The notes beneath the pieces were generated by a model. That model did no database searches, was not told the origin of the DNA, and saw only the letters and a program-made list of their open reading frames with translations. The position numbers and the translations under genes were made by a program. Of a stretch of DNA of 38,811 nt, positions 1-38,238 are shown piece after piece (position 1 is the first letter of the stretch; each line of letters starts with the position of its first letter). The stretch is from an uncultured Alphaproteobacteria bacterium (GTDB taxonomy: Bacteria > Pseudomonadota > Alphaproteobacteria > Rickettsiales > UBA1997), in contig CAIOKL010000278.1 of the NCBI GenBank assembly GCA_903858915.1, positions 1 through 38,811 of the forward strand. Direction: 5' to 3'.

Positions 1-45
1 AGGATTGTAAGTTGCAAATTATTGTCAAAAGTAAAATAAAAAATT

Positions 46-3501: not shown

Positions 3502-3554
3502 TTTTTAAATAATTCAATTAATTTTTACTAAGTAAAAAACATTTAATTGTTCAA

Positions 3555-20285: not shown

Positions 20286-21665
20286 ATGAATAAATTTATC
20301 GTTTACGGCCTAGGAATTTCAGGGATTTCGACCGCTAAAGCACTTGCCCAAAAAAACTTTGAAGTTACTGCAACCGATGATAATCAAAGGCTAATAGAAG
20401 ATGATGCTCAAAAATACCCAGAAATAAATTTCAAAAACTGTTCTGAAATTTCTTTCGATAAAGACACCAAAATTTCATTTGCTCCCGGAATCCCTCTGCA
20501 CTTCCCAAGGCCACATAAAATTCTCGAAATTTGTCAGAAAACTCAAGCGCAATTATCGTGTGATATTGAAATTTTTTACGAATTAAATCACTTAAATAAT
20601 AATTTTATTGGCATCACGGGAACTAACGGCAAATCAACGACTACAGCCTTAACTGGCTTCATTTTTGAGAACCTAAAAGTGCCATCAAAAATTGGCGGAA
20701 ATATTGGTATTGCTTGCTTCGACTTGCCACAAAATCAAAATAATTTTAACTACATTTTAGAAGTTTCTTCATATCAACTTGATTTGATGAAAAATGTGCG
20801 TTTTAACATCGCATGTCTTTTGAATATTACGCCCGATCACATTGATCGCCACGGCTCTTTTGAAGAATATATTCACTCCAAAAAAAGAATTTTTTTGAAT
20901 CAAAATGCGCAAGATTTTGCCGTAATCGACATTGATAATCCGAACTCCGCAAAAGTTTTTGCAGAATTAAAAAATAATCAAAATTTTCAAGCAAATTTAG
21001 TTGAAATTTCTACCGCAAAAATTCCGCAAAATGGCGTTGCGGTTATTGAAAATAAAGTTTTGGTAAATTTACAAAATCAAAAATTTGAATTTGAAATTAA
21101 TCCAATTTTAAAGGGTAAACATAATCACCAAAATATCGCTTGCGCTATTGCAATTACTTGTTGCTATCTCATTAAAAATGCGCAATTTAATCAACAAAAA
21201 ATTCAACAAATTATTAAAATTATTGAAGAATTTAAAGGCTTAAAACACCGTATGCAATTGGTGGGAGCGGTTGATGGAATTAGCTTTGTCAACGATAGCA
21301 AAGCTACCAATGCCGAATCAACCGAAAACGCATTAAAATCTTATGATAATATTTTTTGGATTTTGGGCGGTAAAGCCAAAGAAGGCGGAATTGAAAGCCT
21401 CAAGCCCTATTTTTCAAAAATTCAAAAAGCTTATTTAATCGGTGAAGCTTCCGATGAATTTGCTAAATTTCTTGCGCAAAATTTCGTAAATTATGAAAAA
21501 TGCCAAACACTTAAAAACGCTTTCGATAAAGCTTTGATCGATGCAAAATCATCAAATTTAATTGAAAAAAACATTATTCTCTCACCCGCATGCGCTTCAT
21601 TTGATCAATGGAAAAATTTTGAAGAGCGCGGTGATTTTTTTTGTAAATTAGTAAATGATATTTAA
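20286..21665 (+). CDS. murD: UDP-N-acetylmuramoylalanine--D-glutamate ligase
   Basis: N-terminal VYGLGISGIS and Mur ligase P-loop GITGTNGKSTT. The ORF-track start at 20274 is TTG; I prefer the ATG at 20286 (MNKFIVYGLG). Confidence 0.92.
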   Translation: MNKFIVYGLGISGISTAKALAQKNFEVTATDDNQRLIEDDAQKYPEINFKNCSEISFDKDTKISFAPGIPLHFPRPHKILEICQKTQAQLSCDIEIFYELNHLNNNFIGITGTNGKSTTTALTGFIFENLKVPSKIGGNIGIACFDLPQNQNNFNYILEVSSYQLDLMKNVRFNIACLLNITPDHIDRHGSFEEYIHSKKRIFLNQNAQDFAVIDIDNPNSAKVFAELKNNQNFQANLVEISTAKIPQNGVAVIENKVLVNLQNQKFEFEINPILKGKHNHQNIACAIAITCCYLIKNAQFNQQKIQQIIKIIEEFKGLKHRMQLVGAVDGISFVNDSKATNAESTENALKSYDNIFWILGGKAKEGGIESLKPYFSKIQKAYLIGEASDEFAKFLAQNFVNYEKCQTLKNAFDKALIDAKSSNLIEKNIILSPACASFDQWKNFEERGDFFCKLVNDI

Positions 21666-24600
21666 AAAAATTTATACATTTTTAAACAGTTACTTCAATG
21701 GAAATAAGCTTTCCAAAGCCCTTTGGACGCTTATTTTTATTTTTACCCTCGCCTTTTCGGGCGTTTTATTTTTTACAGTTAAATCTATTGCGCGAACTGC
21801 AGCTCAACAAGAAGCTATAGCAGAACTTGCTAGTCAGGGGATTATTTACGGCGAAACTGAATGGGAAGCAGAGGAGAGGGAGAGGTTAGCGGCTGAAAAT
21901 GCGAGAATAGCTCAAGCTGCTTCATCTCTAACTTTAACAAATATGAACACCGCGCCAACTGTTAGTTATGTTTCAAGTGGGTTTTCGGTCGATAAAGTAA
22001 ACGAGTTTCATATTTTATATCAAAAACAAGGTCTTCTAGATAATAAAATTTATACTTCATATTTACCTCCCAAAGATACTTTTAACAAAGACACAGGGAC
22101 TGAACACACTCTTGATCCTTGTCTTTATTTGGGTCAGAGTGGACTTAAAATGATCGGAAGAGATTGTATGATCAAAATTCCATTTGACTGCGGAAGCCCT
22201 CCAAATCAAATAACGGCAAAACCGGGCGAAAATTGCCTTTCATATTCGGCCGTATTTAACACCATTTCTGGTGGCAAAAAACTTGATCCAAAAAATTGTT
22301 CCGGTGTTGGCGCTGTAGATAAAACCAATTGCTTATCAACGCAAAGACCTTATTGCCACCTTACTCAAAACCCAATACTTGGAATTAATTGTAGACTTGC
22401 GCCGTGTAATTTAATTCCAAATCATCAATATCGAAGACCCGGAGTTAATTGTTTGGCGGATTGTAATGATATTTCGGGAATCCATATTTCCGAAGCACAA
22501 TTTTTTATGGAAGGTTTTAATTGCTTATCTTCTTGCCGAACTTCTACGCCAAAATCAATTGGGGCAAATTGCGTTTTAGAGTTCAATGATTATGTAATGC
22601 CATTATGTACTGTCATCGATGCAAACACAAAACATTTTAACCTAACCACCGATCAAACTAGAAGAGAGGGATGTTTAGATGTTATCGATTTGCCTCTCTG
22701 CGTAGGTGGTGGCGATCAAGAACTTCAAAATTGTGTTAAAGAATGCAATGCCGTAACTTCTGGTAGTCACAATAAAAATTGTGTTAATTTTGATCAACTA
22801 TCGAGCGCTAAATATAATGGATATGTAAATAAAAAATGCCATAGTTATTTTGACATAACCAGTTTGGGCGCGAATCCAAATTGCACTAAAATCGAATGTG
22901 ATAAACTATCAATTACAGAATTAGCCAGATCTCTTAATATATTTGATGTTACGGAGAATCGAAAATATTGTACTCTTGCAAAATATACAAACTTTAGTAT
23001 CGCTCAATTTTATGCAATAAATTCTATAGAACCTTCTAAAGCCTATCTCAGAGAATATGCTTTGGCGGATAAGCCTTGCTATTCTAGAGGAGATACCGAA
23101 GAAATTGAAACAATTCTCAGTAGCGCTTTTTTTGGTAGCTTCGGTAATACCAAAATTGCATATTTAAAAGCTCACGCCAAGAGTAAATATAGCATTGAAA
23201 ACATTACAGTTTCAGATGAACAAGTTACCAAGGGGCATGCAGATTTTGTTTCAGATTACATTTATGCACCCGAAAGCATGTGCCATGTAGACAACGCCTC
23301 TCAAATGATCTCGTGCGAAAATTATAAAAGAAGCGAAATCCCCACAGCTCCTTACGATTGCAATGCTAAATCTTTTTGTGCGAATTGTCCGCAGACAATA
23401 ACTGGTATTTGCTCTCAAGAATCAGATCAATATTGCTATAAAAATGGCATAAATTGTAATAGTTCAATTAATCAAATTTATCCGGTATGTTCAAGAACTC
23501 TTGTGGCGGAATCTAGACCTACTTCTGACGAATATGTTTCTTGGTTCTTCAGGCCAAATGTTCCGGGGGATGCCATAAAAACTAATAATACTAATACAAC
23601 GACTTCTTTAGCTGCTATGAGTGGTTATCCAACCGAAAGCGTTACTACTAACAATCCTAATGAAACTATCTACATGAATATAGATAATATGAAAGCAAAT
23701 GGATACGGAGCAGACTTCTTAGGATTCGGAGTTAGTCGACGAATAACTCCTCCATCTCAAGGTATGGATATGGGAATTCCCGGTGTTGGAGCTGGATATA
23801 TTTGCGGAATGGGAGGAAATTATCGCGGAGTTCCAAATAATGATTCCGCTTATTTTAGAGGTGAAGTTCAAACCAATTATGAAATGGACGGAAAAGTTTC
23901 GCATGCTGTAGATGTTTGTATTAGATATGCAAGTGGATCCAATGCATTACAAAGTTGTGGATATAGAGACTGTCATAGTTCTTGTGCCTTCGGAATTTGT
24001 ACAAAAATATGTGGAATCGATGTTTGTAGAACTCTAAAAATAGTAGAAGGTCCAAATGTGCCGATTCAAAATTGTGGTTCTAATGATTATAACTTTAGAA
24101 ACGGCAATGGTGCCGAATGTGTTAAAACATACCAAACAAGTCTTGATGCCGTTAGTGAAAATACAAGAGTTAGAATTTATAAACCAGATGCTAGTAATTA
24201 TATATGCGCCGTTCTTGAATTTCATGGTATTACAACGGATCTTCAAACAAACCCATTTTTTAATGGAACGGAATATTTTTCGGTACCAGATCAAAATAAT
24301 AAAGGTGAAGCTAGAAAAATTTGCGTTAGCGGAACTTATGTAAAAAGTTCTGATTCTTGCGTTAATGGTATCGACTCAAATGGTGACAAAGCTAATTCAA
24401 ATACTTGGAGAACTTCCAAAATAATTAAATATATCATGGAGCCGTCGGTCGATAACTATATTGATCAATATGGCATCGGTCCAGTTGATTTAAGTTCAAA
24501 ACATACCGATCCAGAAACCAAAAAAGAAGTTAATCAAACTATTGGTAGAGTTAATTTTAATGTTAAAAGATACTTTGAAACTTCGGATTGTATTAAACAT

Positions 24601-27600
24601 AAACAAAGAATTGGTGCGCCAGTTTACCATTCTGTAGCTACAATTATAAATTCAGAAAGGCTTTTTTTGCCATCTATTATTATTGAAAAAAAATGTAAAA
24701 TTGCATCATTGGGAACTGAGTGTGAAAATGTTGATGAAACTGATTTTTTTAAACCGGCTATTTTAATTTTGTATGGTGGAAAAGATGTTTCTAGCTCAAT
24801 ACTCTCTGATGATCCAAGCACTCTAAACACCAACTACAAAATTCTTAAAATTGATGCTACAGAAAATGTAAGCGCTGATTATATCATAAAAGCTGCTAAT
24901 TTTGGAATTTCGGGAATAGATGTTTCTCAAAGAGTTTTTATTAAAAAAGAATTTTCTGCCTCTCAACCTAAATTATGTTTGTATAAAAAGACTCCTATGG
25001 GAACTAATCCCGAAACATACAAAGAAGACATTATACAATGCGTAAATAGAAAAAGAGCGACTAGAGGTTTGATTCAACCCGCCGTAGTCGTACCAGCTCA
25101 TACCAATCTTTCATTTCAAACGGGCTTTTTAAAAAACGAAGGAGCTTCACATAATTCAATTATTGGAGAATTGCCAAAGCAAGAATTCCAATTTATCAAC
25201 ATGACAACAAATATAAGAAATAAAGAGGATTTAAAAAAATGTATTGATATTACTAGTCAGGGCTTCCCAATTTGCATTCAAAGAGAAGAATGCTCTCTTC
25301 TTAACAATGAATGTGTTGAAAATGAAAAAGCTTTAATTATCGAAAAAAATAGTGCCAATCCACAAATTGGAATTATTCAACAAAAAGAACTTACTAGCAA
25401 TTATTGCAAAAAAGAACTGCTTGCAAAATGTAATTCGAAAAAAGGTTATGCACTTACCGCTTCCAATCAAACTTTAAACACTTCAACAACTCAGGGCGTA
25501 GGTTTTAACGCAGAAAACAATCCCGCATATCACGGTTGGTTTAATGAATTTTGCATTGTAAGTGGCATAGAAAAACTCGATGACCCAGCTTCAAAAGTAT
25601 ATGTACTAACTCAGATTAATACCGATGGGCAATTAGGGTCTTGTATTAAAGATAATAATTGTGCAACTTGTAACGATCTTCGTTGTTTGAAAGCTAGCTG
25701 TTGTGCGATATTAGACGCTACTTTATTAAGCTCTGCGTCAGCTCGATTAGCAACTTCGCACGAACTTGGTTTATGTTATAATCTAGACAGTTATTTAAGA
25801 ACTTGTTCCGCAATTTCATATGGAAAAAATAGCGATATAAGTGATCCATTTTTTATCGGAGAAAGTTATTTAACTAATCCCCATCAATCGCATATAGACA
25901 GATTCAATTCATCGCCTTATCGCAGTTTCAATGCGGAATATGAAGTAGCTTATGCCGGCACCAGTTCTGTAAAAGGAAAATGCGTTGGTTTTTATAAAAA
26001 TGCAATTTCAGATACCGATCCAACGGCGAATTGTAATGCGAATGGAGAATGGGAAGGCTTTACCGAATCCTCATGCACAATGTATACTTGTCCGACTAAA
26101 AAACTGCCATTAGGCAATGGTGGCGCCGATTTAAATGGCGCATATCCTTCAGATTATGATGCGAGTGGAGTGCAACTATCTTCAAAAAGAGGCGTTATTG
26201 ACGGATATGCAAATTGGGAGTCGTTGAAAAAAACCACTATTCAAAAACAACAAGCGACGGCGACTTCATGTATTGTTGGATTTGCCAAAAAAAATGCCTC
26301 ATTTAATTCTAGCCAAATAAGCTTGGCCGAAGTTTCTCCAAGTGTATTACTCTCCTCATTTAATAACTATAAAGCAACTTTAAATCCTGAAGATCAGAAA
26401 GCGATTTTGTCGTTATTTAGCAAAATTAATGGCTATTCGGGCGGAAGCTCTCCAACTAGAAATTGTAATCAGCTTGGTTCTTGGGAATCGGTAACGGATT
26501 CTTGCGAAAGAATAACCTGCCCTCCCATTAAATTTACTGAGTCAGCTGATGCGGGCGCATTTAATTTGAATGATTATGATTTGACAGTAGCTGATTCTTC
26601 AGGTCAAAAAATTATTTATAGTATAAATTCTCCATACGGATCTTCAAGTGGCGACTTACCAACAAAAGCCAAATTTTTAACAAGCGTCGCTATAAATGCT
26701 CCGGCTTATTTATCGGTTACAAACAGCATGGATGCTTATAAATTTTTGATTAAAGATTCGGATGGTGTAAACAATGCCAGCATAGATAGAAATAAAGTTT
26801 ATGTAGTTGAGATTTCTGCGGGTAGTTGGAAAATAATTCCAAACCAAAATGATGATGTTTTAAAAATTTTGTGGCAAAAATCCGGCGGTGCTTCTTTTGA
26901 TAAAGGTTACGCTTTGCGAAGTAATCTATTTGATTACGAACCGACCGATGATCCCAATGATAAACACAGAGTCATTGGAACATGTAATGAAAAAATGGGA
27001 TTTAAATCTTTATCGCAAGAATCTAGACCTCAACTTACATGCGACTCAAGCGGTAATTGGGTAAATCTTTCAAATCCTTGCGTTACTGATTGCGGAGCGA
27101 TTTCCGATCCTGTGGCTAGAAACGCTATTCACGGATTTTCACGGTGGTTAAAATCAACTGCCGTAGTTGGTCAATCGAAAATTGAAACATCTAGTGGTTG
27201 TTCTGCAGGTGGTTATCAGCCATATCCATATACGCCATTATTTGACGAAGAAGGAACAAAAAAAGATTTTGGAATTGGTGCGAACGATAGAGAATTTATT
27301 ACATCCGATAACTTCGATGCTATAACCGTTTCAAATGACGGAGCCAATTTTATTGCGCAAGCTGGAACTGGAGAAAACTTAACTCCGTCGGTGAATAATA
27401 TTGATGGAATTTATTACAATCTTAAAATACAAACCTCGGTTTCCGATGTTCAAACATCCGCTTTCAGCTCAACTCAAGCTGGCGTTCAAACTGTATTTTA
27501 TTTATTTGACAGCGCGCAAAGACTCAGTATGTCTCCTCCTTCTAATGCGGTTTGGTCAAAAATTAATTTCTCAAGTTTCGGCACTCCCGACTATTCCATA

Positions 27601-30600
27601 AAAGGCAATGTTGTTGAAAACGCATCTTGCCGTTCGCCTTATTCTAAATTAATTTTCGCTAATAAATGTATTGGAAAAACTAATTGCTCCGTGGGTTTGT
27701 CTGATTTTACAAATTACGATAGTACCAACACTTGCAACCAAACAAATCCTGGCAATGGAGTAAATGGTGAACAAAATGACACGGTTATTAGCTATGGTTC
27801 GGGCGGTGGCGGTGGCGGTGGCAATAATGCGGGAGCTGGAGGCGCTCCAACGAGTTCAATAAATATAAACGGCATTTCGGGAAGTTCATATTACGATAAA
27901 GCATTTCATGTAACTCCGCCAATTCTATCAAATGCGTTAAATAATGGTGTCAAAGTTGATTTAAAAGTGGCTGATACCGGTCAATTCATCGGCAAAAATG
28001 GTTCGGTTAAAATTATCGAATCAACAACTTCTAGTTTCTCAGCCCCGAGAGAATCTAATTACACTTCACCAGGAGAGAATACTCACACCGTTACAGCGGG
28101 TAGTTCTGGACAAAATATTTATATCAAATATGAAATGAGTGGCGCGGGTGGCGGTGGTGGCGGACCAGGTTTGAATCAAGGAACTGACGGCGCCAGCGGA
28201 ACAAAAATGACCAATGGAGTTTTTGTGGTTAAAAATGGCACTATTTTAAAAATTTATGTCGGCGGTGGCGGTGGCGCTGGTAAAACTAAGTGCATTACTC
28301 CGTCAGGGGGTGGAGCGTTTTTAGATCCTAAACTATTTCAACCAAATAACAATATTTTTGCTTACAAAAAACCCGAAAGCAATTTCCTAGTTAAGGCATT
28401 AAGAGGAATCGGATCGATGTTTATTTCTGAAGGTTGGGCGGCGGCTCAACTAAGTTGTTATTTTTATAATAATGTCTGGTCAGATGGATATAGTCCGATT
28501 CTTGTTAATCAACTCGTTAATACTGGCTCATACTCGGCATTAAAATTAAAATGTTATGGATCTTTATCATTTTGTATATGTAGCACCTTTACATGTTTAA
28601 ATAATATAGAAAATACAACAACTTATAATACACAAATAGATCCAAGCGATACACCAATATCGTTGAGATGCAAAGATGGTTATAGAAATAATGGAGAAGG
28701 ACCAAAACTTACTTGCAAAAGAAATTTAACCAATCCTTCGATAAAAGATGAAATCCCAACTGGGAGTTGCATCGCAAATGAATGTTATCTTGATTCATGG
28801 ACGGGATTTAGCCATGGAACTAATATCGTTGAAGGAGCTGGTGCTCTCAATTGTAGTCCCGGCTATACCGCTAGTACTTCACCGGCACCTGGTTATTATT
28901 GCGGAGCTGATGGTTTGAATCAAGGGATCCGTGCGACACAGGTAGGATCTTGCACTCTAAATTCTTGTACGCTTAGCGGAAGTGCATATTCTAATGCAGG
29001 AAGTGTTTCTGGATCTGGTGCAATTAATTGTAATTCTGGTTATACTGCTAGCACCTCTCCAGCGCCAACTTATGTTTGTAATACAAATAGTGGTCCCGCA
29101 ACAGTTAGTGGATCTTGCACTCCAAATTCTTGTACGCTTAGCGGAAGTGCATATTCTAATGCAGGAAGTGTTTCTGGATCTGGCGCAATTAGTTGTAATT
29201 CTGGCTATACTGCTAGCACCTCTCCATCGCCAACTTATGTTTGTAATACAAATAGTGGTCCCGCAACAGTTAGTGGATCTTGCACTCCAAATTCTTGTAC
29301 GCTTAGCGGAAATGCATTTTCTAATGCAGGAAGTGTTTCTGGATCTGGCGCAATTAGTTGTAATTCTGGCTATACTGCTAGCACCTCTCCATCGCCAAGT
29401 TACTATTGCGCAACAAATAACTCTGCCTCAGATGCTACAATTTTAGGATCTTGCACTCTAATCACTTGTTCTTCTAATGCAATTACTGGATTTTCTAGCA
29501 AAACTATAAATTACACAACAGCAGTTACCTCTGATGTTGCTTGTGATTCCGGTTATTCGGGAACGGTATCTTACGGTCCTTGCACTACTCAAGACGCATC
29601 ATTAACTGTTAATGGAACTTGCACCGCAAACCAACCATGCTCAATTCCTGCTGGAAATGGACATGGAGCGCTTGAGATTGCTCCAACTGGAAGTAGAAGT
29701 GGAAGCATTACTTGCAATGCCGGTTCTGGTTACACTGGTTTGGGCGATTTAGCTTATTCTTGCGGTTCGAGTGCTACACCAAAATATACGGGAAATTGCA
29801 ATTGCGCCGCTGGATATTCTAGAGAAGAAACAAATATAGCAAATAGCGCTTGCAATCCAATTTTTTGCATTGCGGCCATTCCACCGGGCGTGACTCAAAC
29901 AGCAGATACAATAAAAATATCAAAATTTGCAAGTTTTACTACAAATAATGTAAATTTCAATGTTATTTATTTGGATATAAGGCAATTTAATACTGAAAAT
30001 TTTAATAATGCAAATAAAATAACAAAAATTATATTAAACAATTATTTATTAAATGTTACTTTTAGAGCTTCGGATAGGTATAATGTTATGTACAATGTTT
30101 CTAATAATGCAATAGTGGATTTAATAAATTTGAGTGCTATAAAACTTAGTACTATAGATAGTGGTTATTATTATTATAATCTTTCAACGAATGATTCCAC
30201 AGCTTTTATTTTTGGTAAAAGTTTAAATTCTGGTGACACTTCTTTAAGTTGTGATAAAACTGGTTATTTAGGAAGCGTCAATTACAATTGTACAACTAGT
30301 GGATTTTTATTTGCCCTTGGAGCTGCAACGAATGCAACTGATAAGAATTCTTGCCCTTGCGATACCGCTGCTAATAATTATACTAAATTATCAGATGGGA
30401 CTTGCGCTAAAATCGAATGCACCATTAATAGTGGTACTGCGGGATTTGTAAGTGGTACTAAAATTCCTTATAACACCTCAACTTCAACAAAAAATTGCAA
30501 CGATCCGCTTTACAATAATTCTCTGACAGCAGATTTCCCAGCTTGTACTAGCATAGCAAATGTCACTCCCATTGCAAATGGAAATGGATGTCAAAAAATT

Positions 30601-33600
30601 TCTTGCTCAACCACAGGAAAAAATGTAAATGTAACGGATAATACAATATATAGAAAAATTAACTCCGCGGGAGTTGATGAGGAGCAAACTTTAACTTGCG
30701 ACACTGGTTATTCAAATGGAGCATCCACGACAATAAGCGCTAAATGTTTAGCAAATATGGTTAATGGCGTTCCTACTACAGGTGCTTTAAGCAATATTGT
30801 TGGAACTTGCTCCGCAATTACTTGCACTGCGCCTCTGGCGAATGGTTATTCAGCTAAAACTGGCTTACCTTATACCGCCTTAATTGGAGCTGGGACAATA
30901 TCATGCGATACAGCCGGTTATAGCGGAAATGCCAATTACACTTGTCAAACTAAAGATGCCGATGTAACCATTACCAAAACTTGCGATTGCGCCACGGGTT
31001 ATGCTAAAAATGGAAGCGGAGTTTGCGTTAAACCATGTACAATTTCTGATGGAAATGGTTATTTAGGAAAAACAATTAATGCTACAGATTCTAGAACAGG
31101 AACTATTACTTGTGGTGGCACTGGTTATTTTACCACTTCGTTTGTCAACTATTCTTGTGATGATGCCGGAACGCCTACAATAGGTGGAAGTTGCACTTGT
31201 GCTTCTGGCTACGCTAATACCTCCTCTGATAGTGCTTGTAAGGCAATTAAATGTCAAACTAGTGCAACCGGATTTAAGGCGAACACCGAAATTTCTTATA
31301 GTACTTCGGTGGCAAATTACTTTTGTAATGATCCGCTGTATAATAATACCGTAACCACAGCTTTCCCAGCTTGCACTGTTCAAGGAAATTTCCTTTCAGC
31401 AATAGCAACAGATAATTATTGCCTTGCAAATAAAATTTCTTGTTCAACCGCAGGAAAAAATGTAAATGTAGCGGATGATAAAATATATAGAATAATTGAC
31501 GCCACGGGAGTTGATCAAGCGCAATCTTTACTTTGCGCTACGGGTTATTCGAATTCGGGAAGTGCAAATATATCAGCTACATGTATTCCGGAAATGTTTG
31601 ATAGAGGTGGAGTATTAGTTCCGAAAACAGGATCTTTAGCTGTTACTGGCACTTGTAATCTAATTACTTGTTCTGCGCCTCCAATCACAACAGGAATCTC
31701 AAAAAACAAAGGTTACAATCCGCTTAGTTACACGGCGTTACCATATTCAGCGGGAGAAAATAATTCAACAATTGCTTGTTCGGGACCAAATTATAAAGGA
31801 TATGCCGGCTATACTTGTACGGCCTACAATTCATTTGCAACGATTACCTCAAAATGTGCTTGTGGTGATGGTTATTCTGAAAATTCTTACGGAGATTGCG
31901 TTGCAATTGTTTGTTATGCTGATGCTGCCAAAGGATATTTAGCAAAAACCGGCTTAAATTATTCTACAGGATCTGGAACAATTGCTTGTGATCAGACTGG
32001 TTATGGTGGAACTGTTAATTATACTTGTACAGCTAATGGTAAAGTTGGTAGCGTTGAAGTTTGCGGTTGTGCCACTGGTTATGCTAAAGATGCAAACAAA
32101 GATTGCGTTAGAATTACTTGTGATATTCCTGCCGGCAATGGATTTAATGCCGGCAAAATTGAATATACAACAACTCAGTTAAATTATTCTTGTAACGCGA
32201 CAGGTTATCGAACCGATACAACCGCTCTTTTTTCTTGTTCAGATAATGGTGTTAGTACAACGGGGAAACTTGGGACAGGACTTAATTCTTGTCTAAGATT
32301 AACTTGCGATATAGATCGGGGCAATGGGTATTCGGCAAAAAGTGGTTTGTATTATTCTACAACAACTAATGGTTATATAGCATCAAATGGCATATATTCT
32401 TCTACAGGAACTGGAACGATCGCTTGCGATCAAACTGGTTATAGCACTGGAACGATTAGATATATTTGTGAAACTCATGGTCATAAGGCAACTATAGTTA
32501 GTGGTGATTCTTGTGCTTGCGCTCCAAATTATTATAAAGATACATATGGCGCTTGCGTTCCGATGACTTGTACTTCAGACACTGATCCGGTGGTGATAGA
32601 AAAAACAGGAGCGATAGAAACAAAAGATTTGCCAATAACAACAAATGGAACGATAGCTTGCGAAACGACTGCTCACACAGGAACCGCAACTTATACTTGT
32701 TCAGAAGATACAACGCGAACACCTCGTGTTGCGAAAGGAATTTTTACAATTGTCACTCCTTGCGCTTGCAAAACTGGTTATGAAGAGAAAGAGGCTGTTT
32801 GTACGAAAATAAATTGCGGAATATTGGCTTCCACCAGTCCAGGATTTGTAGATACGACAGCTCCTTATAGCGCCATCAAAGTAAATTATTTCTGTAACAA
32901 TCCATTGTATGATAACACTGTTTCTGTTGAATTTCCAGCTTGCACAACTTCTGCAGGAATTAATTATACGCCGAATACTGCAACTTCGCCAGCGACTAAT
33001 GTTTGTAAAAAAATTAGTTGTACAATTCCCGCAGATTATCATGTAACACAAACTTCAATATTCGCTAGCGCTTCTAGTGAAAATTTAATATGCGCTACAG
33101 GTTATTCAAATGGATCATCCACAACAATAAGCGTTAACTGCTCGACGGTAAACGCTCAAAGAACTAATTATGATTTAACAATAAGTAGTGTTCCGAAATC
33201 GGGATCTTTAAATAATAAAAATGGGAGTTGCGCTCGATTAGCTTGCACTGTTCCAGCTGGTTCAAATACAACAAAAGACGGAACCTTGGTAGATTTTACG
33301 GGAGATACCACAACCTCTTTAAATTGCATTACTGGCTATGCCGGATCCCCAACTTATACTTGCAAAGGAACTACTACTGCAGTTTATGCGTCCTCCGGAA
33401 CTCCTTGCGCAAAAATTACTTGCACCGTTCCAACTGGAATTACTGGATTTGATTCTGGTACAACTGGTATAGAATTCGGAACTTTTGATTATTATTGCAA
33501 TACCGAAGGTTTTCAAACTTCCACCAAAGCAAATTTTTCTTGCACTGCTAATTCCACTAATCCAACAACAAGCACTGTAGGTACATTTTCTCAAATCTCC

Positions 33601-36600
33601 AACAGTTGCGCAAGAATTACTTGTTCAGCTGATGCTAACAAAGGTTATTCAGCTAAAACTAACTTACCTTATGCCAAAGATGTACTCGGAACAATTGCTT
33701 GCGCAACGCCTAATTATCAAGGAAATGCAAATTATACCTGCACAACTCATGGCGTAACTGCAACAATCACCTCGGCTTGTCAATGTGGAACGGGCTATGA
33801 AAGAAACGCCTACAATTATTGCGTTCCAATTACTTGTAACATTCCAGCTGGAACGGGTTATACAGCTCACTATAGTTTGGATTATACCGGAGCGGGCGTT
33901 TCACGGGATTTTGATTGTGATACCGAAGGTTATTACGGAAAAGTTTCTTATATATGTCCGGGCGGTGGCGTGCGGGCTACTTATACCGATACTTGCACAA
34001 GAGTAAAATGTAATTTACCGCTTAGCGCCAATTCAAACATCGTACCTACAATGGTAAGTGGAAGTGAATATAGAGAAGTTGATTATTCCGCGACTCCTAG
34101 AGAATACACTTGCGGAAGTGGTTTTAGAAAAACACTTGATCTTAATTATGCACAATTAAATCCTACTTACACATGCGTTAAAAATACTAATCTGGCGCAA
34201 CAAAGTAATCCTTCGACGGTTGCTGTTCAAAATGCTTGCGTTGAAATTACTTGTACCGATCCATACACCAATATTACTTATTCATTTAATGGCGGGCAAC
34301 CTCAAATATTTCCTTGCGATACTTCGCGAGGTCTTTGGGGTGAGTCGGAATTAAACTGTAACGAAGCCGGAATTGTTACTAAGACTAAATCCTGTTATAC
34401 GGTGAAATGTTTAATTCCAGCCGATAAAAACACTTCCAGAGACGGAGCTCTTGTTGATTTTTCGGTTGATTTTTTTGGGCTAGATTGCAAACAAGGTTTT
34501 TATTATGAAAACGCAACTAGACCTAAATATAAATGCATTTACACAGCTAATGAAGCCGTTGTAAATCGTGGAGCGTTGACTTTCGAGGGAACTTGTCAAA
34601 GAATTACTTGTACAATACCGACGGAAGGAATTAACTCATTAAATTCAGTTCTCGATAGCACCAGCGTTAATTGGAATGGCGCTGATTACATTACTACAAG
34701 CTGTAGAGAAGGATTCTATCAATCGAATCTAGCGTTACCTCCTAAATATTCATGTTCGGGAGCTAATCCAATTGGCGAATTGAGAGTCATGAATCCTTGC
34801 GCGCCAGTAACTTGTGATCTTCCTGAGCGCTTTGGAATGTTAGCAAAAACTAATTTAGAATATGGTCAAGGAAAGACTACTAGCTGTAACAAATCAGGGT
34901 ATTTTGGAACCGTTACATATAATTGCGTCACCCCAATTACTTTAGGAAAAGGAGTGACATCGGTGGCCTCCTCAACTTGCGTAGAAGCGTCTTGTGTCGC
35001 AAGTGGAAATGTCGTTGCCACATTTAACACCTTCGTAAGTTCTGGATCAGGTGGAGCGGGTGGAATTGGTGGAAAAATTAGCGACCCAATTGCATTTTTA
35101 AGAGGTGGAAATGGTGGAAATTCAACAACTTCGCGCACCTCTGGTTCGGGCGGTGGCGGTGGTTCAGCTTCAATGATTTCGATCGAAAATAGAATTATCG
35201 CTATAGCTGGCGGTGGCGGTGGCGGAGCTGGTGGCGGTGGAGTTGAAAATGCTACAAACGCTTTAACGAAAATTAGTAATACCGAAGATTTAAATGTCAG
35301 ATTAATTGCCAATGTTTTTGGACCTTATTTTATTGGCGAGATGCAATATTCTCCAATCAACATTACGCCTCAAAAAACTACCGGAATTTTATATAATCAA
35401 GCCTCATATCCAGATCCTTTTTCATTAACAATTCCAGGCGGAACCTTCATTAATGATATTTTCTTTGCTTCATACGGAAGTCCAACAATAGATTTTACAG
35501 CTCCCGAATCTTTGATTTTGAAATATGGAACTTGTAATGATTCAAGTTCGTTAACGCAATCAATCAATCAATGTAGCGGTAAATCATCCTGCATAATCAA
35601 TACTAATTCATTTTCTAGATGCCAATCTGAAGCTTCTAAAAAATTTGGTTTAGTTGCATCTTATTATTATCAAGAGCCAACTCTTCAAGTGATAAACTCA
35701 GCGGGACTTCCTGCTTATAGTTTAAAAGAACGCTACAATAATCAAACTATTCCAGCAACTAATATGAGCAATGGTCAAGTTTATACTTTCTTATTAAACA
35801 AAGAAGATAATATTTGGTTCAAATATCCTTATTTAGCCGATGAATATTTAATCTCAGAAGCTGTTTCTGGTAACAAAATTAAAATTAAATTTCATAGAAC
35901 AAACACCACCTTTTCTCCAAGATTAAAAATTAACGGAATATCTTCTACAATTTCAAAACTAGATGAATCGGGACAGCCTATTTCTCTAAGCGTTGGTTAT
36001 ATTAATCCTACTAAAATTTATATTTTAACTAAATATTCAGATAGGTGGATAATAAGAGAATATATCTCTCAAGAAGTTGCTGGAGCATTGCCGAGTGGAG
36101 AGCGGGTTCCTCCTAGTAGAAGCTGTATGACAAACAAAATCTCTTCGACCGGGGCTGTTAATGTAATGTGGAGTTTACCAAATTCTTCTTGTATAAACAG
36201 ATGTCCAGGATATAACATGAGGGATAACATTGGTGATGATAGAATTGGGGTTGGAGCAACAAAGCATTCAACTTCAGCGGGTGAAGGTATAGTTTATTGG
36301 AGTGATACATTGCCAAACAATTGGAGTTATAAGAAATTTAAATCGAATGTATCCAGTTCTGACGCTAACGGTAGGAAGGTTTTTCAAGAAACTGAAGATA
36401 CTCTTACTCCTTTGAATTTCAGGGAAAATCGTTCGGGACCATATTTTGCATTAGCTAGATTCTGTAATGGAGATGGGTCTTGGAATGCGCCAATTCCACT
36501 TTGTGTTTACAATAATGCAAATTCTACTAATTCTGCCATTACTCCCGTATTGAATGGAACCTCTTATATTTCGGGAGAAAGTCAATCATATCTAAAAGTT

Positions 36601-37647
36601 AATACTGGAGAAGAAGCTATTTCGCAGTGTTTAAGTGGATTTGACAAACAAACGACCGATAGTTATTTAACTGATGGCTCTTCTACATATGAACCGCCTA
36701 AATATAAATGTTTGATGAATAGCAATAATGTGGATCAAACATATTTTGCAGAAGTGAGCGACTCATCAAGAAGGGCATGTGTTAAATATTGCGCCGTTAA
36801 TGATATTGCAGGATCATCTGTTTCTACTGAGAGTAAGAGAGGTATTAAAGTTAGAGCTGGTGGAACAATAGAATTAGAATGCGCTGCAGATTACCTTCCT
36901 CCCATATTGGCAGATGGGACTAGGTCAAATTTAAAGCCATATGCGACTTGCATTAGCGATTATACTGGAACTGTTCTTTGGGCAACGAGTAGTTCTGAAA
37001 CCACAATTGAAAATAAGTGTACATTTGCCAGATCTTGTTATGAATCGAGTTTAACTAAAGATGTTGGTTCTTATACGCGCCAAGCAACTTGGGTAGCAAC
37101 TTGTTGGAAAAGTTCTGCTGACTATTCTGATAAAAGCAACTATTATGATTATAAACAATTCCAGATTGATAATAAAAGTTCACCTTGTCCCGATTCAACA
37201 TATAATTATAAATCTCATGAGCATTATAATGATGAAAATAAGAGTGACTGGTTCCCAGCTAAAAAATTTATTGAATCAAAACATCGATCGGGTTTTGGTA
37301 GTGGTCTAACCCATCCTTTTGTCACCACCGACAGCCAGCATAAAAAATATGGAAAATGTGGATATTGCAAATATGGGGTTGGTTTGTCTTGGTTAGCGGG
37401 TAATGCTCAATGGAATTATGTAAGAAGGTATTTGCAATCATACTCATGTTATGATGGTGCTTGGAGTTTTAATTGGAACAATGTTGATACATCAGAGCGA
37501 AATGCTTGCGATGGCGACAATTGGGATCATCGTGGTTTTTTTGGAGAGAATGGAGAAAATCATCCATCTGAATCGTATCTTGGTGAATGCAAAGGGGACA
37601 GTCAAACTGATACTTTTAATAATTTTAATAACCTTCAAGATTATTAG
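21655..37647 (+). CDS. Giant (5330 aa) membrane-anchored Cys-rich repeat protein with Sushi/CCP-like, EGF-like, SUEL-lectin-like and polyglycine domains; putative surface adhesin or lectin
   Basis: Single uninterrupted frame of 15,993 nt. ATG at 21655 overlaps the murD stop by 11 nt. One N-terminal hydrophobic helix. Periodic cysteine spacing is maintained through the repeat array, which argues for real coding under selection. All other-frame ORFs inside are short shadows. Confidence 0.9.
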   Translation: MIFKKIYTFLNSYFNGNKLSKALWTLIFIFTLAFSGVLFFTVKSIARTAAQQEAIAELASQGIIYGETEWEAEERERLAAENARIAQAASSLTLTNMNTAPTVSYVSSGFSVDKVNEFHILYQKQGLLDNKIYTSYLPPKDTFNKDTGTEHTLDPCLYLGQSGLKMIGRDCMIKIPFDCGSPPNQITAKPGENCLSYSAVFNTISGGKKLDPKNCSGVGAVDKTNCLSTQRPYCHLTQNPILGINCRLAPCNLIPNHQYRRPGVNCLADCNDISGIHISEAQFFMEGFNCLSSCRTSTPKSIGANCVLEFNDYVMPLCTVIDANTKHFNLTTDQTRREGCLDVIDLPLCVGGGDQELQNCVKECNAVTSGSHNKNCVNFDQLSSAKYNGYVNKKCHSYFDITSLGANPNCTKIECDKLSITELARSLNIFDVTENRKYCTLAKYTNFSIAQFYAINSIEPSKAYLREYALADKPCYSRGDTEEIETILSSAFFGSFGNTKIAYLKAHAKSKYSIENITVSDEQVTKGHADFVSDYIYAPESMCHVDNASQMISCENYKRSEIPTAPYDCNAKSFCANCPQTITGICSQESDQYCYKNGINCNSSINQIYPVCSRTLVAESRPTSDEYVSWFFRPNVPGDAIKTNNTNTTTSLAAMSGYPTESVTTNNPNETIYMNIDNMKANGYGADFLGFGVSRRITPPSQGMDMGIPGVGAGYICGMGGNYRGVPNNDSAYFRGEVQTNYEMDGKVSHAVDVCIRYASGSNALQSCGYRDCHSSCAFGICTKICGIDVCRTLKIVEGPNVPIQNCGSNDYNFRNGNGAECVKTYQTSLDAVSENTRVRIYKPDASNYICAVLEFHGITTDLQTNPFFNGTEYFSVPDQNNKGEARKICVSGTYVKSSDSCVNGIDSNGDKANSNTWRTSKIIKYIMEPSVDNYIDQYGIGPVDLSSKHTDPETKKEVNQTIGRVNFNVKRYFETSDCIKHKQRIGAPVYHSVATIINSERLFLPSIIIEKKCKIASLGTECENVDETDFFKPAILILYGGKDVSSSILSDDPSTLNTNYKILKIDATENVSADYIIKAANFGISGIDVSQRVFIKKEFSASQPKLCLYKKTPMGTNPETYKEDIIQCVNRKRATRGLIQPAVVVPAHTNLSFQTGFLKNEGASHNSIIGELPKQEFQFINMTTNIRNKEDLKKCIDITSQGFPICIQREECSLLNNECVENEKALIIEKNSANPQIGIIQQKELTSNYCKKELLAKCNSKKGYALTASNQTLNTSTTQGVGFNAENNPAYHGWFNEFCIVSGIEKLDDPASKVYVLTQINTDGQLGSCIKDNNCATCNDLRCLKASCCAILDATLLSSASARLATSHELGLCYNLDSYLRTCSAISYGKNSDISDPFFIGESYLTNPHQSHIDRFNSSPYRSFNAEYEVAYAGTSSVKGKCVGFYKNAISDTDPTANCNANGEWEGFTESSCTMYTCPTKKLPLGNGGADLNGAYPSDYDASGVQLSSKRGVIDGYANWESLKKTTIQKQQATATSCIVGFAKKNASFNSSQISLAEVSPSVLLSSFNNYKATLNPEDQKAILSLFSKINGYSGGSSPTRNCNQLGSWESVTDSCERITCPPIKFTESADAGAFNLNDYDLTVADSSGQKIIYSINSPYGSSSGDLPTKAKFLTSVAINAPAYLSVTNSMDAYKFLIKDSDGVNNASIDRNKVYVVEISAGSWKIIPNQNDDVLKILWQKSGGASFDKGYALRSNLFDYEPTDDPNDKHRVIGTCNEKMGFKSLSQESRPQLTCDSSGNWVNLSNPCVTDCGAISDPVARNAIHGFSRWLKSTAVVGQSKIETSSGCSAGGYQPYPYTPLFDEEGTKKDFGIGANDREFITSDNFDAITVSNDGANFIAQAGTGENLTPSVNNIDGIYYNLKIQTSVSDVQTSAFSSTQAGVQTVFYLFDSAQRLSMSPPSNAVWSKINFSSFGTPDYSIKGNVVENASCRSPYSKLIFANKCIGKTNCSVGLSDFTNYDSTNTCNQTNPGNGVNGEQNDTVISYGSGGGGGGGNNAGAGGAPTSSININGISGSSYYDKAFHVTPPILSNALNNGVKVDLKVADTGQFIGKNGSVKIIESTTSSFSAPRESNYTSPGENTHTVTAGSSGQNIYIKYEMSGAGGGGGGPGLNQGTDGASGTKMTNGVFVVKNGTILKIYVGGGGGAGKTKCITPSGGGAFLDPKLFQPNNNIFAYKKPESNFLVKALRGIGSMFISEGWAAAQLSCYFYNNVWSDGYSPILVNQLVNTGSYSALKLKCYGSLSFCICSTFTCLNNIENTTTYNTQIDPSDTPISLRCKDGYRNNGEGPKLTCKRNLTNPSIKDEIPTGSCIANECYLDSWTGFSHGTNIVEGAGALNCSPGYTASTSPAPGYYCGADGLNQGIRATQVGSCTLNSCTLSGSAYSNAGSVSGSGAINCNSGYTASTSPAPTYVCNTNSGPATVSGSCTPNSCTLSGSAYSNAGSVSGSGAISCNSGYTASTSPSPTYVCNTNSGPATVSGSCTPNSCTLSGNAFSNAGSVSGSGAISCNSGYTASTSPSPSYYCATNNSASDATILGSCTLITCSSNAITGFSSKTINYTTAVTSDVACDSGYSGTVSYGPCTTQDASLTVNGTCTANQPCSIPAGNGHGALEIAPTGSRSGSITCNAGSGYTGLGDLAYSCGSSATPKYTGNCNCAAGYSREETNIANSACNPIFCIAAIPPGVTQTADTIKISKFASFTTNNVNFNVIYLDIRQFNTENFNNANKITKIILNNYLLNVTFRASDRYNVMYNVSNNAIVDLINLSAIKLSTIDSGYYYYNLSTNDSTAFIFGKSLNSGDTSLSCDKTGYLGSVNYNCTTSGFLFALGAATNATDKNSCPCDTAANNYTKLSDGTCAKIECTINSGTAGFVSGTKIPYNTSTSTKNCNDPLYNNSLTADFPACTSIANVTPIANGNGCQKISCSTTGKNVNVTDNTIYRKINSAGVDEEQTLTCDTGYSNGASTTISAKCLANMVNGVPTTGALSNIVGTCSAITCTAPLANGYSAKTGLPYTALIGAGTISCDTAGYSGNANYTCQTKDADVTITKTCDCATGYAKNGSGVCVKPCTISDGNGYLGKTINATDSRTGTITCGGTGYFTTSFVNYSCDDAGTPTIGGSCTCASGYANTSSDSACKAIKCQTSATGFKANTEISYSTSVANYFCNDPLYNNTVTTAFPACTVQGNFLSAIATDNYCLANKISCSTAGKNVNVADDKIYRIIDATGVDQAQSLLCATGYSNSGSANISATCIPEMFDRGGVLVPKTGSLAVTGTCNLITCSAPPITTGISKNKGYNPLSYTALPYSAGENNSTIACSGPNYKGYAGYTCTAYNSFATITSKCACGDGYSENSYGDCVAIVCYADAAKGYLAKTGLNYSTGSGTIACDQTGYGGTVNYTCTANGKVGSVEVCGCATGYAKDANKDCVRITCDIPAGNGFNAGKIEYTTTQLNYSCNATGYRTDTTALFSCSDNGVSTTGKLGTGLNSCLRLTCDIDRGNGYSAKSGLYYSTTTNGYIASNGIYSSTGTGTIACDQTGYSTGTIRYICETHGHKATIVSGDSCACAPNYYKDTYGACVPMTCTSDTDPVVIEKTGAIETKDLPITTNGTIACETTAHTGTATYTCSEDTTRTPRVAKGIFTIVTPCACKTGYEEKEAVCTKINCGILASTSPGFVDTTAPYSAIKVNYFCNNPLYDNTVSVEFPACTTSAGINYTPNTATSPATNVCKKISCTIPADYHVTQTSIFASASSENLICATGYSNGSSTTISVNCSTVNAQRTNYDLTISSVPKSGSLNNKNGSCARLACTVPAGSNTTKDGTLVDFTGDTTTSLNCITGYAGSPTYTCKGTTTAVYASSGTPCAKITCTVPTGITGFDSGTTGIEFGTFDYYCNTEGFQTSTKANFSCTANSTNPTTSTVGTFSQISNSCARITCSADANKGYSAKTNLPYAKDVLGTIACATPNYQGNANYTCTTHGVTATITSACQCGTGYERNAYNYCVPITCNIPAGTGYTAHYSLDYTGAGVSRDFDCDTEGYYGKVSYICPGGGVRATYTDTCTRVKCNLPLSANSNIVPTMVSGSEYREVDYSATPREYTCGSGFRKTLDLNYAQLNPTYTCVKNTNLAQQSNPSTVAVQNACVEITCTDPYTNITYSFNGGQPQIFPCDTSRGLWGESELNCNEAGIVTKTKSCYTVKCLIPADKNTSRDGALVDFSVDFFGLDCKQGFYYENATRPKYKCIYTANEAVVNRGALTFEGTCQRITCTIPTEGINSLNSVLDSTSVNWNGADYITTSCREGFYQSNLALPPKYSCSGANPIGELRVMNPCAPVTCDLPERFGMLAKTNLEYGQGKTTSCNKSGYFGTVTYNCVTPITLGKGVTSVASSTCVEASCVASGNVVATFNTFVSSGSGGAGGIGGKISDPIAFLRGGNGGNSTTSRTSGSGGGGGSASMISIENRIIAIAGGGGGGAGGGGVENATNALTKISNTEDLNVRLIANVFGPYFIGEMQYSPINITPQKTTGILYNQASYPDPFSLTIPGGTFINDIFFASYGSPTIDFTAPESLILKYGTCNDSSSLTQSINQCSGKSSCIINTNSFSRCQSEASKKFGLVASYYYQEPTLQVINSAGLPAYSLKERYNNQTIPATNMSNGQVYTFLLNKEDNIWFKYPYLADEYLISEAVSGNKIKIKFHRTNTTFSPRLKINGISSTISKLDESGQPISLSVGYINPTKIYILTKYSDRWIIREYISQEVAGALPSGERVPPSRSCMTNKISSTGAVNVMWSLPNSSCINRCPGYNMRDNIGDDRIGVGATKHSTSAGEGIVYWSDTLPNNWSYKKFKSNVSSSDANGRKVFQETEDTLTPLNFRENRSGPYFALARFCNGDGSWNAPIPLCVYNNANSTNSAITPVLNGTSYISGESQSYLKVNTGEEAISQCLSGFDKQTTDSYLTDGSSTYEPPKYKCLMNSNNVDQTYFAEVSDSSRRACVKYCAVNDIAGSSVSTESKRGIKVRAGGTIELECAADYLPPILADGTRSNLKPYATCISDYTGTVLWATSSSETTIENKCTFARSCYESSLTKDVGSYTRQATWVATCWKSSADYSDKSNYYDYKQFQIDNKSSPCPDSTYNYKSHEHYNDENKSDWFPAKKFIESKHRSGFGSGLTHPFVTTDSQHKKYGKCGYCKYGVGLSWLAGNAQWNYVRRYLQSYSCYDGAWSFNWNNVDTSERNACDGDNWDHRGFFGENGENHPSESYLGECKGDSQTDTFNNFNNLQDY
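21718..21780 (+). other. N-terminal transmembrane helix / signal anchor of the giant protein
   Basis: Residues ~22-42 (ALWTLIFIFTLAFSGVLFFTV) preceded by basic residues (KK, K18, K21). No obvious AxA cleavage site follows immediately. Confidence 0.7.
27553..27735 (+). other. SUEL-type (rhamnose/galactose-binding) lectin-like domain 1
   Basis: WSKINFSSFGTPDY...CRSPYSKLIFANKCIGKTNCSVGLSDFTNYDSTNTC matches the I-x-F-A/S-S-F/Y-G-x-P ... C-x-G-K-x-x-C-x-V ... F...C pattern of Gal_Lectin/SUEL domains. Confidence 0.6.
27796..28320 (+). other. Polyglycine (ALK/LTK-type glycine-rich) domain 1
   Basis: GSGGGGGGGNNAGAGGAP ... YTSPGENTHTVTAGSSGQNIYIKYEMSGAGGGGGGPG..GTDGASG...NGTILKIYVGGGGGAGKT. Beta-strand / Gly-run alternation as in bacterial and phage glycine-rich-domain proteins. 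Encoded partly by (GGCGGT)n hexanucleotide runs. Confidence 0.55.
28945..29439 (+). repeat. Three near-identical in-frame 165-nt (55-aa) tandem repeats
   Basis: The GGATCTTGCACTC... unit restarts at 28945, 29110 and 29275 (exact 165-nt period) with only a handful of substitutions. Encodes GSCTxNSCTLSGSAYSNAGSVSGSGAI(N/S)CNSGYTASTSP(A/S)PTYVCNTNSGPATVS. Confidence 0.95.
30418..32121 (+). repeat. Higher-order (four-module) repeat, two full units of about 834 and 870 nt
   Basis: Unit starts at KIEC (30418) and AIKC (31252). Collinear landmarks are YxCNDPLYNN..FPACT, KISCSTxGKNVNVxDxxIYRxI..GVDxxQxLxCxTGYSN, then two Sushi-like+EGF-like pairs. The best DNA stretch is roughly 85-90% identical by eye. 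Confidence 0.8.
32814..33246 (+). repeat. Partial third copy (first two modules) of the higher-order repeat
   Basis: KINC...YFCNNPLYDNTVSVEFPACT...KKISCTIP...LICATGYSNGSSTTISVNC repeats the first two module types of the 30418/31252 units. Confidence 0.7.
34996..35250 (+). other. Polyglycine (glycine-rich) domain 2
   Basis: FVSSGSGGAGGIGGK...RGGNGGNS...SGSGGGGGSASMISIENRIIAIAGGGGGGAGGGG. Same strand / Gly-run alternation as domain 1. Confidence 0.55.
35437..35670 (+). other. SUEL-type lectin-like domain 2
   Basis: GGTFINDIFFASYGSPTIDF...KYGTCNDSSSLTQSINQCSGKSSCIINTNSFSRCQSEASKKFGLVASYYY closely follows the FASFG-x-P...G-x-C...C-x-G-K-x-S-C-x-(V/I)...F...C...K-x-L-x-V pattern of SUEL domains, for example at the C-terminus of plant beta-galactosidases. 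Confidence 0.65.
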
Positions 37648-37692
37648 CTAACCTTTATTTTTAAAAAATTAAATCAAAAAAAACAAAAACTT

Positions 37693-38175: not shown

Positions 38176-38238
38176 AAAAAATATCCCGAATATAAGAAAA
38201 ACTTTTTTAAAAAAGTTTAACTTATTTTTCTTAAAAAA

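Follow-up and report, generated by a model that had tools for sequence, protein, structure and literature searches.

Within a 38,811-nucleotide (nt) contig of an uncultured alphaproteobacterium (CAIOKL010000278.1; hereafter the window), a giant open reading frame (ORF) encodes at positions 27553-28320 (residues 1967-2222 of its product, residue n corresponding to window nt 21655 + 3(n-1)) what is, in our judgement, fairly probably one conserved extracellular module. Its first part is a SUEL-like lectin domain and its second a miniature, apparently permuted glycine-rich domain with Gly runs of fixed length, and the protein that bears both would be a giant surface protein anchored at its N-terminus. 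An overlapping gene in another frame or on the other strand was rejected as an account of this interval, as no further ORF of at least 100 residues crosses it. The original prediction, made from the letters of the window without database searches, had seen here a SUEL-type lectin fused to a polyglycine domain of the ALK/LTK kind. The peptides that it quoted, viz., KINFSSFGTPDY (residue 1969), CIGKTNCSVGLSDF...TC, NIYIKYEMSGAGGGGGG, and TILKIYVGGGGGAG, are all present and their residue numbers agree; the runs of seven, six, and five Gly (G7, G6, and G5), the gap of ~20 residues between the end of the lectin-like part (residue 2030) and the start of G7 (residue 2050), and the alternation of GGC and GGT codons were likewise confirmed in the sequence. 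It had also not recognised the pairing as a described unit, and this holds: we found no paper that describes the lectin + Gly pairing. Neither domain family is new; novelty lies in their fusion, in the abridged and apparently permuted shape of the Gly part, and in the host gene, a 16-kb orphan that keeps its syntenic place in a lake bacterium.

The module recurs as a unit in a small set of related proteins. An exhaustive phmmer search (HMMER) with residues 1955-2282 as the query against 1.84 billion (1.84e9) representative proteins recovered 22 matches at E <= 1e-3, 13 of them at E <= 1e-10, and revealed the family, whereas word-indexed homologue searches, swamped by poly-Gly words, had yielded only 2 and 3 matches. 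Nine of the phmmer matches are giant proteins of 3,387-4,284 residues that cover the lectin + Gly query fully or nearly so. Eight relatives are orthologues collinear with the window protein, namely P0003-P0007, P0009, and P0010 at 31-56% identity, and P0008, a 753-residue fragment. Another, P0013 (3,387 residues), carries four lectin + Gly modules in tandem (residues 550-804, 820-1066, 1090-1323, and 1348-1582) and is encoded by Alphaproteobacteria bacterium LBMAG epi.bin2, a metagenome-assembled genome (MAG) from Lake Biwa (locus L002, 7559-17722); a scan of a genome collection with a poly-Gly pattern found at least one locus, that of this MAG with P0013. The weaker matches (P0015-P0024) are multi-SUEL-lectin proteins devoid of Gly runs, and tblastn against 50,697 phage records gave no match. 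This conservation at the sequence level shows the pairing of lectin and Gly parts to be genuine, rare, and maintained by selection as one unit.

For the first part of the module, homology to SUEL domains is well supported at the level of the family: a sequence profile of 14 modules matches the solved domains 5iaz_A (E 3.8e-7) and CSL3 (2zx0; E 1.9e-6), and more weakly a rhamnose-binding lectin (5h4s; E 0.015) and a latrophilin-like structure (8suf; E 0.078). The Pfam model PF02140 is matched by 12 of the 14 homologous modules; its gathering cut-off of 31.4 bits is exceeded only by the P0013 module P0013d (34.5 bits), the others scoring 19.5-29.7 bits, and the window copy, at 29.5 bits in isolation (E 1e-6) and 25-26 bits in context, does not reach it. 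With the plant beta-galactosidase C-terminal domain (5IAZ), CSL3 of chum salmon (2ZX0), and the rhamnose-binding lectin domain of latrophilin, this part shares the motifs I-x-F-A-S-F/Y-G-T-P, C-H-S, and K-C-I-G-K-x-x-C-x-v-x-l-S-x-F, and by sequence it comes nearest to the 'FASFGTP' type, which plant beta-galactosidases carry at their C-terminus. It differs from these domains in its sub-threshold score and in stopping at about position 70 of 80 of the model: the alignments to PF02140 always end at positions 59-70, and the C-terminal strand is absent. The FGDPC...KYL end of the classical domain is retained as FGDPC only in P0013d and is replaced in the window copy by FTNYDSTNTC, the sequence there reading SDFTNYDSTNTC and then GNGxNG. 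A classical SUEL domain has eight Cys; the window copy has four. The assignment to SUEL lectins therefore holds for the family as a whole and falls short for the window copy, which scores below the cut-off and lacks the last strand; we call it lectin-like, and regard sugar binding as uncertain.

The Gly segment that follows spans 177 residues, of which the first half (here the C-segment) is conserved in 15 sequences. In a protein with 9% Gly, runs of at least five Gly are expected by chance about 0.03 times over the whole length; all six runs of at least four Gly fall in two clusters (residues 2050-2207 and 4499-4529), and the same three blocks stand at fixed columns in 14 modules, on account of which the clustering of Gly runs is not due to chance. 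It is the second half (the N-segment) that connects the module to known domains. Five relatives pass the cut-off (24.3 bits) of the Gly_rich_2 model PF21722, namely P0001 (26.8 bits), P0002 (24.8), P0007 (27.6), P0008 (25.1), and P0009 (30.3), in every case on the N-segment and at ~1-88 of the 226 profile positions. In hhalign comparisons, a 17-sequence alignment (A3) matched single canonical PF21722 proteins at 95-97% (E 4e-10 to 5e-8) and an alignment of 13 canonical domains (P0027 and P0054-P0065) at 96.5% (E 8.9e-10), with the aligned region NYTSPGENTHTV...IYIKYEMSGAGGGGGG...VFVVKNGTILKIYVGGGGGAG corresponding to canonical positions 2-76 only. The family profile further matched seven ALK ectodomain sequences (7mzy, 7mzw, 7lrz, 7nwz, 7n00, 7nx3, and 7ls0) at E 5e-4 to 1e-3, through one stretch of ~75 residues in which IYIKYEMSGAGGGGGG...VFVVKNGTILKIYVGGGG aligns with ALK YSISGYGAAGGKGGKN...GIFNLEKDDMLYILVGQQG (YSISGYGAAGGKGGKN...MLYILVGQQG); the single window sequence matched no ALK structure. 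The ALK/LTK-type model PF12810, the profile by which the original prediction proposed to check its reading, was never reached at its cut-off of 24.5 bits: the window's Gly segment had no match to it, the best relative scored 17.3 bits (P0007, profile 13-64), and matches on the C-segment were sub-threshold as well (P0005, 15.2 bits, profile 161-240; P0001, 12.4 bits, 156-240 of 243; E 0.02-0.15). These profile comparisons establish homology of the N-segment to the start of the Gly_rich_2 and ALK glycine-rich domains, and that much of the ALK/LTK-like assignment is borne out by the relatives; its other part, a standard domain of that type, is not, for the match is confined to the second half of the Gly part and, on the side of the known domain, to its initial third, the sequence as a whole being an abridged form. 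Two further candidates for the Gly-rich sequence were rejected, namely a collagen-like repeat, as G-X-Y periodicity is absent, and RTX nonapeptides, as the GGxGxD motif is absent.

Structure prediction with AlphaFold points to a folded core. For the whole module (328 residues, 14 sequences) the mean predicted local distance difference test score (pLDDT) was 57 and the model was confident only at module residues 125-255; for the Gly segment alone (residues 2024-2226 of the protein, 203 residues, 17 sequences) the mean pLDDT rose to 71.6, with a predicted template modelling score (pTM) of 0.67. The latter model is an eight-strand beta sandwich built from both halves of the segment, with pLDDT mostly 90-96 and the C-segment strands above 80. 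This model suggests a conserved folded core.

The three Gly blocks are gap-free and of equal length in the 14 modules, which are 29-65% identical to the window copy, and no block indel occurs among three close sequences either; differences in run length, such as G6 versus G8 in the second block, stem from substitution of G by A, S, N, or K. In an alignment of the modules (A2), 18 of the 19 invariant columns are Gly, and the loop tips are variable. The original prediction had supposed that in-frame slippage could vary the length of these runs; on this rival account, they would form a contingency locus of hexanucleotide microsatellites altering loop length and with it surface properties. The tracts themselves do exist, Tandem Repeats Finder reporting (GGCGGT)3.5 at 27802-27822 and (GGCGGT)3.3 at 28261-28280; the protein is probably surface-exposed, and at other places the gene does tolerate in-frame indels. 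Over window positions 34702-38775, a strain from the same assembly that is 96.6% identical (L001; ENA ERZ27280308 k141_543668) differs by indels at nine sites within the 3 kb of the gene that encode the C-terminus, all of them frame-keeping (3-nt or compensating pairs). None of the nine, however, lies in a Gly run, and the runs of the second Gly-rich segment ('copy 2', below) are identical in the two strains. The tracts are moreover short, at most 3.5 hexamer units, and their codon usage looks like avoidance of homopolymers and pure triplet repeats: neighbouring Gly codons within runs are identical in 2 of 27 instances against 11.4 expected (P 8e-5), a pattern seen also in three orthologues, and in the runs (at 27802, 28147, 28261, 35149, 35209, and 35230) GGC makes up 45% of Gly codons versus 15% in the rest of the gene and GGA 9% versus 47%, while GGG is absent and the longest G homopolymer is 2 nt. 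Since the codons alternate and the orthologues encode equal run lengths by different synonymous codons, the GGC/GGT hexamer periodicity is, as we read these sequences, a by-product of codon alternation under a fixed length and not a slippage device; together with the equal, gap-free blocks in 14 modules, this makes length variation by slippage extremely improbable. A GGC/GGT periodicity in Gly runs, taken alone, is thus no proof of a slippage-prone contingency tract. It is also very unlikely that the Gly stretch is a flexible low-complexity linker whose likeness to glycine-rich domains is purely compositional. The lack of a Pfam match for the window's own sequence, the heavy compositional bias that HMMER flags in the ALK alignments past the first stretch, the empty Foldseek searches, and the low pLDDT around G7 would all agree with a linker. 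In a linker, however, Gly positions do not stay invariant, nor lengths fixed, at 29-65% identity; most of the hhalign match comes from positions other than Gly (Y.spG.yT.tVP...i.v.v, followed by V.pG..l.I.VG), the strands beside G6 and G5 are predicted at pLDDT 90-96, and P0013 repeats the entire module four times.

The order of elements within the Gly segment departs from the canonical one, which runs from the first strand through the GAGGGGGG loop, the VGAGG loop, the middle G(S)GGGGGsa-i......iAiAGGGGGG, and more Gly loops to the final strand G.sG.V.Ii.y. In the module, the strand IGKNGSVKIIES, which is like the canonical last strand, stands ~10 residues upstream of the first strand NYTSPGENTHTV; the stretch before it (aromatic-G-SGGGGGGG-N...G.SG.SYYD..FH..P) is similar to the final Gly loop in canonical and ALK domains, and the canonical Gly-rich middle with its three or more loops is missing. 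By hhalign, IGKNGSVKIIES falls on canonical positions 214-227, weakly (E 0.2 alone), and when the canonical profile is doubled, the top-scoring alignment spans the C-to-N junction (A3 90-187 versus 214-299), the score rising from 68.1 to 74.0; the sub-threshold matches of the P0005 and P0001 C-segments to PF12810 likewise lie at the C-terminal end of that model. Sequence and model together suggest that the Gly domain is probably circularly permuted. An account without permutation would place two partial glycine-rich domains next to each other, the remnant of a C-terminal part at the lectin and then a truncated N-terminal fragment, as decayed relics of a P0013-like tandem array. The register of the P0013 array (lectin-C-N-lectin-C-N...) is indeed ambiguous, with the fourth N-segment passing directly into a canonical middle segment; the gain at the junction is small (+5.9 score units), and Pfam scores are not improved by re-permutation. 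Nevertheless, the C-N order and the short linker are kept in 14 of 14 modules, including those of the eight single-module orthologues, the AlphaFold sandwich (pTM 0.67) takes strands from both halves, and strong conservation argues against decay; we hold this account to be unlikely.

Several observations weigh against the reading of the interval as a lectin-like domain joined to a permuted glycine-rich domain in a surface protein. For the Gly segment of the window itself, Pfam gives no match even at E <= 10, nor any after re-permutation in silico (N+C); the same operation left PF21722 scores unimproved in other cases (18.0 to 18.0 and 23.1 to 21.8 bits). Among PDB sequences, a profile of the C-segment alone retrieved no ALK, its matches all being engineered Gly-Ser linkers. 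The G7 loop has a pLDDT below 50, and the lectin part one of 37-74, with one helix and two short strands predicted. Foldseek searches with both models against the PDB, and against BFVD with the better of the two, matched neither ALK nor TNF nor a fibre tip, the best hits having E 0.05, 0.34, and 0.008 and a TM-score below 0.25, and so gave no confirmation of an ALK-like fold. The region absent from the lectin-like domain contributes sugar contacts in CSL3, so that sugar binding may have been lost. Finally, the presence of LptD in orthologous loci implies that the lineage has an outer membrane, and in such a bacterium a protein with an N-terminal anchor might be periplasmic.

By its label 'copy 1', the original prediction implied a second copy of the module. 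A second Gly/lectin pair does lie within the conserved C-terminal ~1,400 residues of the giant orthologues, with Gly runs G5, G6, and G4 at residues 4499-4529, and its lectin-like domain is 24% identical to the first (E 0.002) and conserved in seven orthologues; it is only this lectin part that the two regions share. The copy-2 Gly segment has in common with that of copy 1 only composition, not homology, and aligns instead, weakly, with the canonical middle, that is, with positions after the N-segment (hhalign probability 21-55%, E 1e-4 to 1e-3). The two 'copies' thus appear to be different pieces of the canonical domain, each beside a lectin-like domain and in opposite order. In module 1, three Gly loops accompany the apparent equivalents of the last and first strands, and ~2,300 residues downstream stands what resembles the canonical middle (GSGGGGGSASMISI..RIIAIAGGGGGG). 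One could imagine that the two Gly segments are complementary fragments of one canonical glycine-rich domain, docking within the molecule with the chain folded back, or between molecules in a surface lattice; the unit counts agree with this, because the window protein, like seven of the eight collinear orthologues (the eighth being the P0008 fragment), has module-1 and middle-type units at 1:1, and P0013 has them at 4:4, and we nonetheless rate the idea as quite improbable. A chimera of module 1 with the copy-2 middle inserted scored 18.2 bits against PF21722, below the cut-off, with coverage of positions 5-178 of 226. As for P0013, its four modules are followed by four middle-type units (GGGGGsa.i...iAIAGGGGGGGG), one of which has a lectin domain, and its fourth module passes directly into a middle unit in canonical order.

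On the preferred reading, a giant cell-surface protein, rich in disulfide-forming Cys and held by an N-terminal hydrophobic helix, would carry a module of two parts without a spacer, viz., a SUEL-type lectin-like domain and a miniature domain of the Gly_rich_2, phage tail-fibre tip, and ALK kind. In the predicted beta sandwich, each inter-strand loop would consist of two Gly-rich stretches and a short variable tip, giving three loops: SYG-SGGGGGGG / NN / AGAGGAP; GAGGGGGG / PGLNQ / GTDGASG, placed by the sequence between two strands; and GGGGGAG / KTKCITPS / GGGAF, placed after the next strand. The Gly runs would then be load-bearing structural parts of a putative polyglycine lattice, their number of residues being fixed by packing, and, if ALK and the tips of phage fibres are a guide, the variable loop tips may combine with the adjoining lectin-like domain into an adhesive head that binds a ligand. 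In the phage protein Pam3 gp24, which is similar to C. elegans ALK (PDB 7LIR), beta strands extend into loops that each pair two Gly-rich motifs and in which the stem is conserved and the receptor-binding tip variable (PMC9608196), and ALK has 14 polyglycine-II helices (PMC12227593).

Set against Gly_rich_2 domains (PF21722), the N-segment (residues 2125-2210) is like their first ~75 positions (Y/F-T-x-pG-x-y-T-w-x-VP, v-GaGGGGGG, a variable tip, a G-rich return, and v-pG-l-I-VGaGG), and the terminal G-x-G-x-V-x-I-I strand also has its counterpart in the module. The module, however, matches only about one-third of the domain, with the middle absent, the last-strand equivalent upstream, ~50 residues (SYYD..FH..P...KVDL) inserted before that strand, and the lectin at the new N-terminus. 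With the ALK/LTK domains (PF12810; PDB 7LS0, 7LRZ, 7MZY, 7N00) it has in common the aligned ~75-residue stretch (E 5e-4) and an extracellular location, which here is putative; it differs from the collinear order and 14 polyglycine-II helices of ALK, and has no kinase, MAM, or LDLa context. The phage tips, namely those of Pam3 gp24 and Salmonella phage S16 gp38 (PDB 6F45), resemble it in the proposed paired Gly-rich loops with conserved stems and variable tips, but have six loops (12 motifs) in Pam3 and 10 motifs in S16 against three loops here, and are made as a trimeric fibre plus chaperone, whereas the module lies mid-chain in a 5,330-residue cellular protein. Giant adhesins, such as the RTX adhesins MpIBP and LapA, and SiiE, are comparable in their multi-thousand residues, variable repeat number, and embedded modules of a sugar-binding type; they differ in that no RTX, Big, cadherin, or secretion-signal domain was detected here by Pfam and NCBIfam, the repeats here being Cys-rich and sushi-like and the membrane anchor N-terminal.

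Coordinates of the module, its parts, and related features in the window
Feature	Positions	Strand	Residues	Remarks
Giant ORF	21655..37647	+	1-5,330	5,330 aa; hosts the lectin + Gly module
SUEL-lectin-like domain 1	27547..27744	+	1965-2030	PF02140 E 1e-6; Pfam model positions 7-70 of 80
C-segment (first half of Gly segment)	27745..28026	+	2031-2124	GNGxNG, loop SYG-SGGGGGGG-NN-AGAGGAP, G.SG.SYYD..FH..P, strand IGKNGSVKIIES
G7 run	27802..27822	+	2050-2056	GGC GGT GGC GGT GGC GGT GGC
N-segment (second half of Gly segment)	28027..28320	+	2125-2222	NYTSPGENTHTV ... IYIKYEMS-GAGGGGGG-PGLNQ-GTDGASG-TKMTNGVFVVKNGTILKIYV-GGGGGAG-KTKC
G6 run	28147..28164	+	2165-2170	Gly positions invariant in alignment A2
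G5 run	28261..28275	+	2203-2207	
Conserved tail after the module	28321..28464	+		LDP..I.P......NF.VKAL.GIGS.FISEGWA; in most orthologues; partly helical prediction
Second Gly-rich segment ('copy 2')	35017..35259	+	~4455-4535	GGIGGK...FLRGGNGGNS...GSGGGGGSASMISIENRIIAIAGGGGGGAGGGG; no Pfam match
SUEL-lectin-like domain 2	35434..35670	+	~4594-4672	downstream of the Gly segment; PF02140 22 bits, E 2e-4

The giant protein has an N-terminal hydrophobic helix (residues ~22-42), its putative anchor, and 4.7% Cys, and is laid out as a conserved N-terminal part of ~2,270 residues with the module at its end, a Cys-rich repeat block in which the number of repeats is variable, and a conserved C-terminal part of ~1,400 residues. 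In the whole-module AlphaFold model, the tail that follows the module has helices at module residues 290-298 and 306-309, at low pLDDT. The protein is almost wholly an orphan: Pfam yields the lectin matches and, below threshold, Ephrin_CRD (residues 1437-1474) and Sushi (residues 2335-2358), and NCBIfam run on the whole protein gave no match; over residues 2301-5330, a Pfam run at E <= 1 was empty. Within the repeat block, a 165-nt tandem repeat at 28945-29402 (2.8 copies, 97% identity) encodes near-identical 55-residue Cys-rich units (C..NSCTLSG.AYSNAGSVSGSGAI.CNSGYTASTSP.P.Y.C); from its sequence it looks like a recent duplication inside the sushi-like repeats, and the number of units varies among the orthologues.

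The window, with a guanine-cytosine content of ~35%, is a piece of bacterial chromosome that also carries tyrS, a pfkB kinase gene, genes for murF-type and murD-type ligases, mraY, leuA, a transglutaminase gene, a purL fragment, purE, and a gene for a PilC/T2SS-F protein; the lineage is known from freshwater metagenomes. Shared synteny was checked for two lake-metagenome orthologues (P0007 and P0009), around which the order is ccmC, transglutaminase, purL, murD / giant / purE, lptD, secD, yajC. Because the murD/giant/purE order is conserved around these orthologues, the giant gene is a conserved syntenic part of the genome of this lineage and not a mobile insert. Its start overlaps the end of the murD-like gene by 11 nt (21655-21665 in the window), and the overlap is retained in two orthologous loci (L005, 5821-5831; L006, 6001-6011) at 31-39% protein identity, an arrangement that suggests coupled expression with a gene of cell-wall synthesis. 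A cluster-mate of a neighbouring gene occurs on a 1.52-Mb contig; were the genome about that size, the giant gene would take up ~1% of it. A PurL-type ORF at 18949-20088 on the reverse strand encodes 379 residues with only the FGAR-AT linker, AIRS, and AIRS_C regions, far shorter than usual PurL subunits; this length is kept in a 234-member 90% cluster and in the orthologous loci, and the lineage may have a split or reduced purL arrangement. Rfam and tRNA scans of the window gave no matches.

Domains with a polyglycine-II lattice are seldom met among protein folds; a few receptor-binding tips of phages and the part of ALK/LTK that binds the ligand are the known cases. If the reading proposed here is true, the three-loop, permuted fold would be a compact system in which to ask how few Gly helices make a stable lattice and how far such a lattice tolerates new connectivity. 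By analogy with those domains, the module marks the probable ligand-binding head of an otherwise orphan 16-kb gene.

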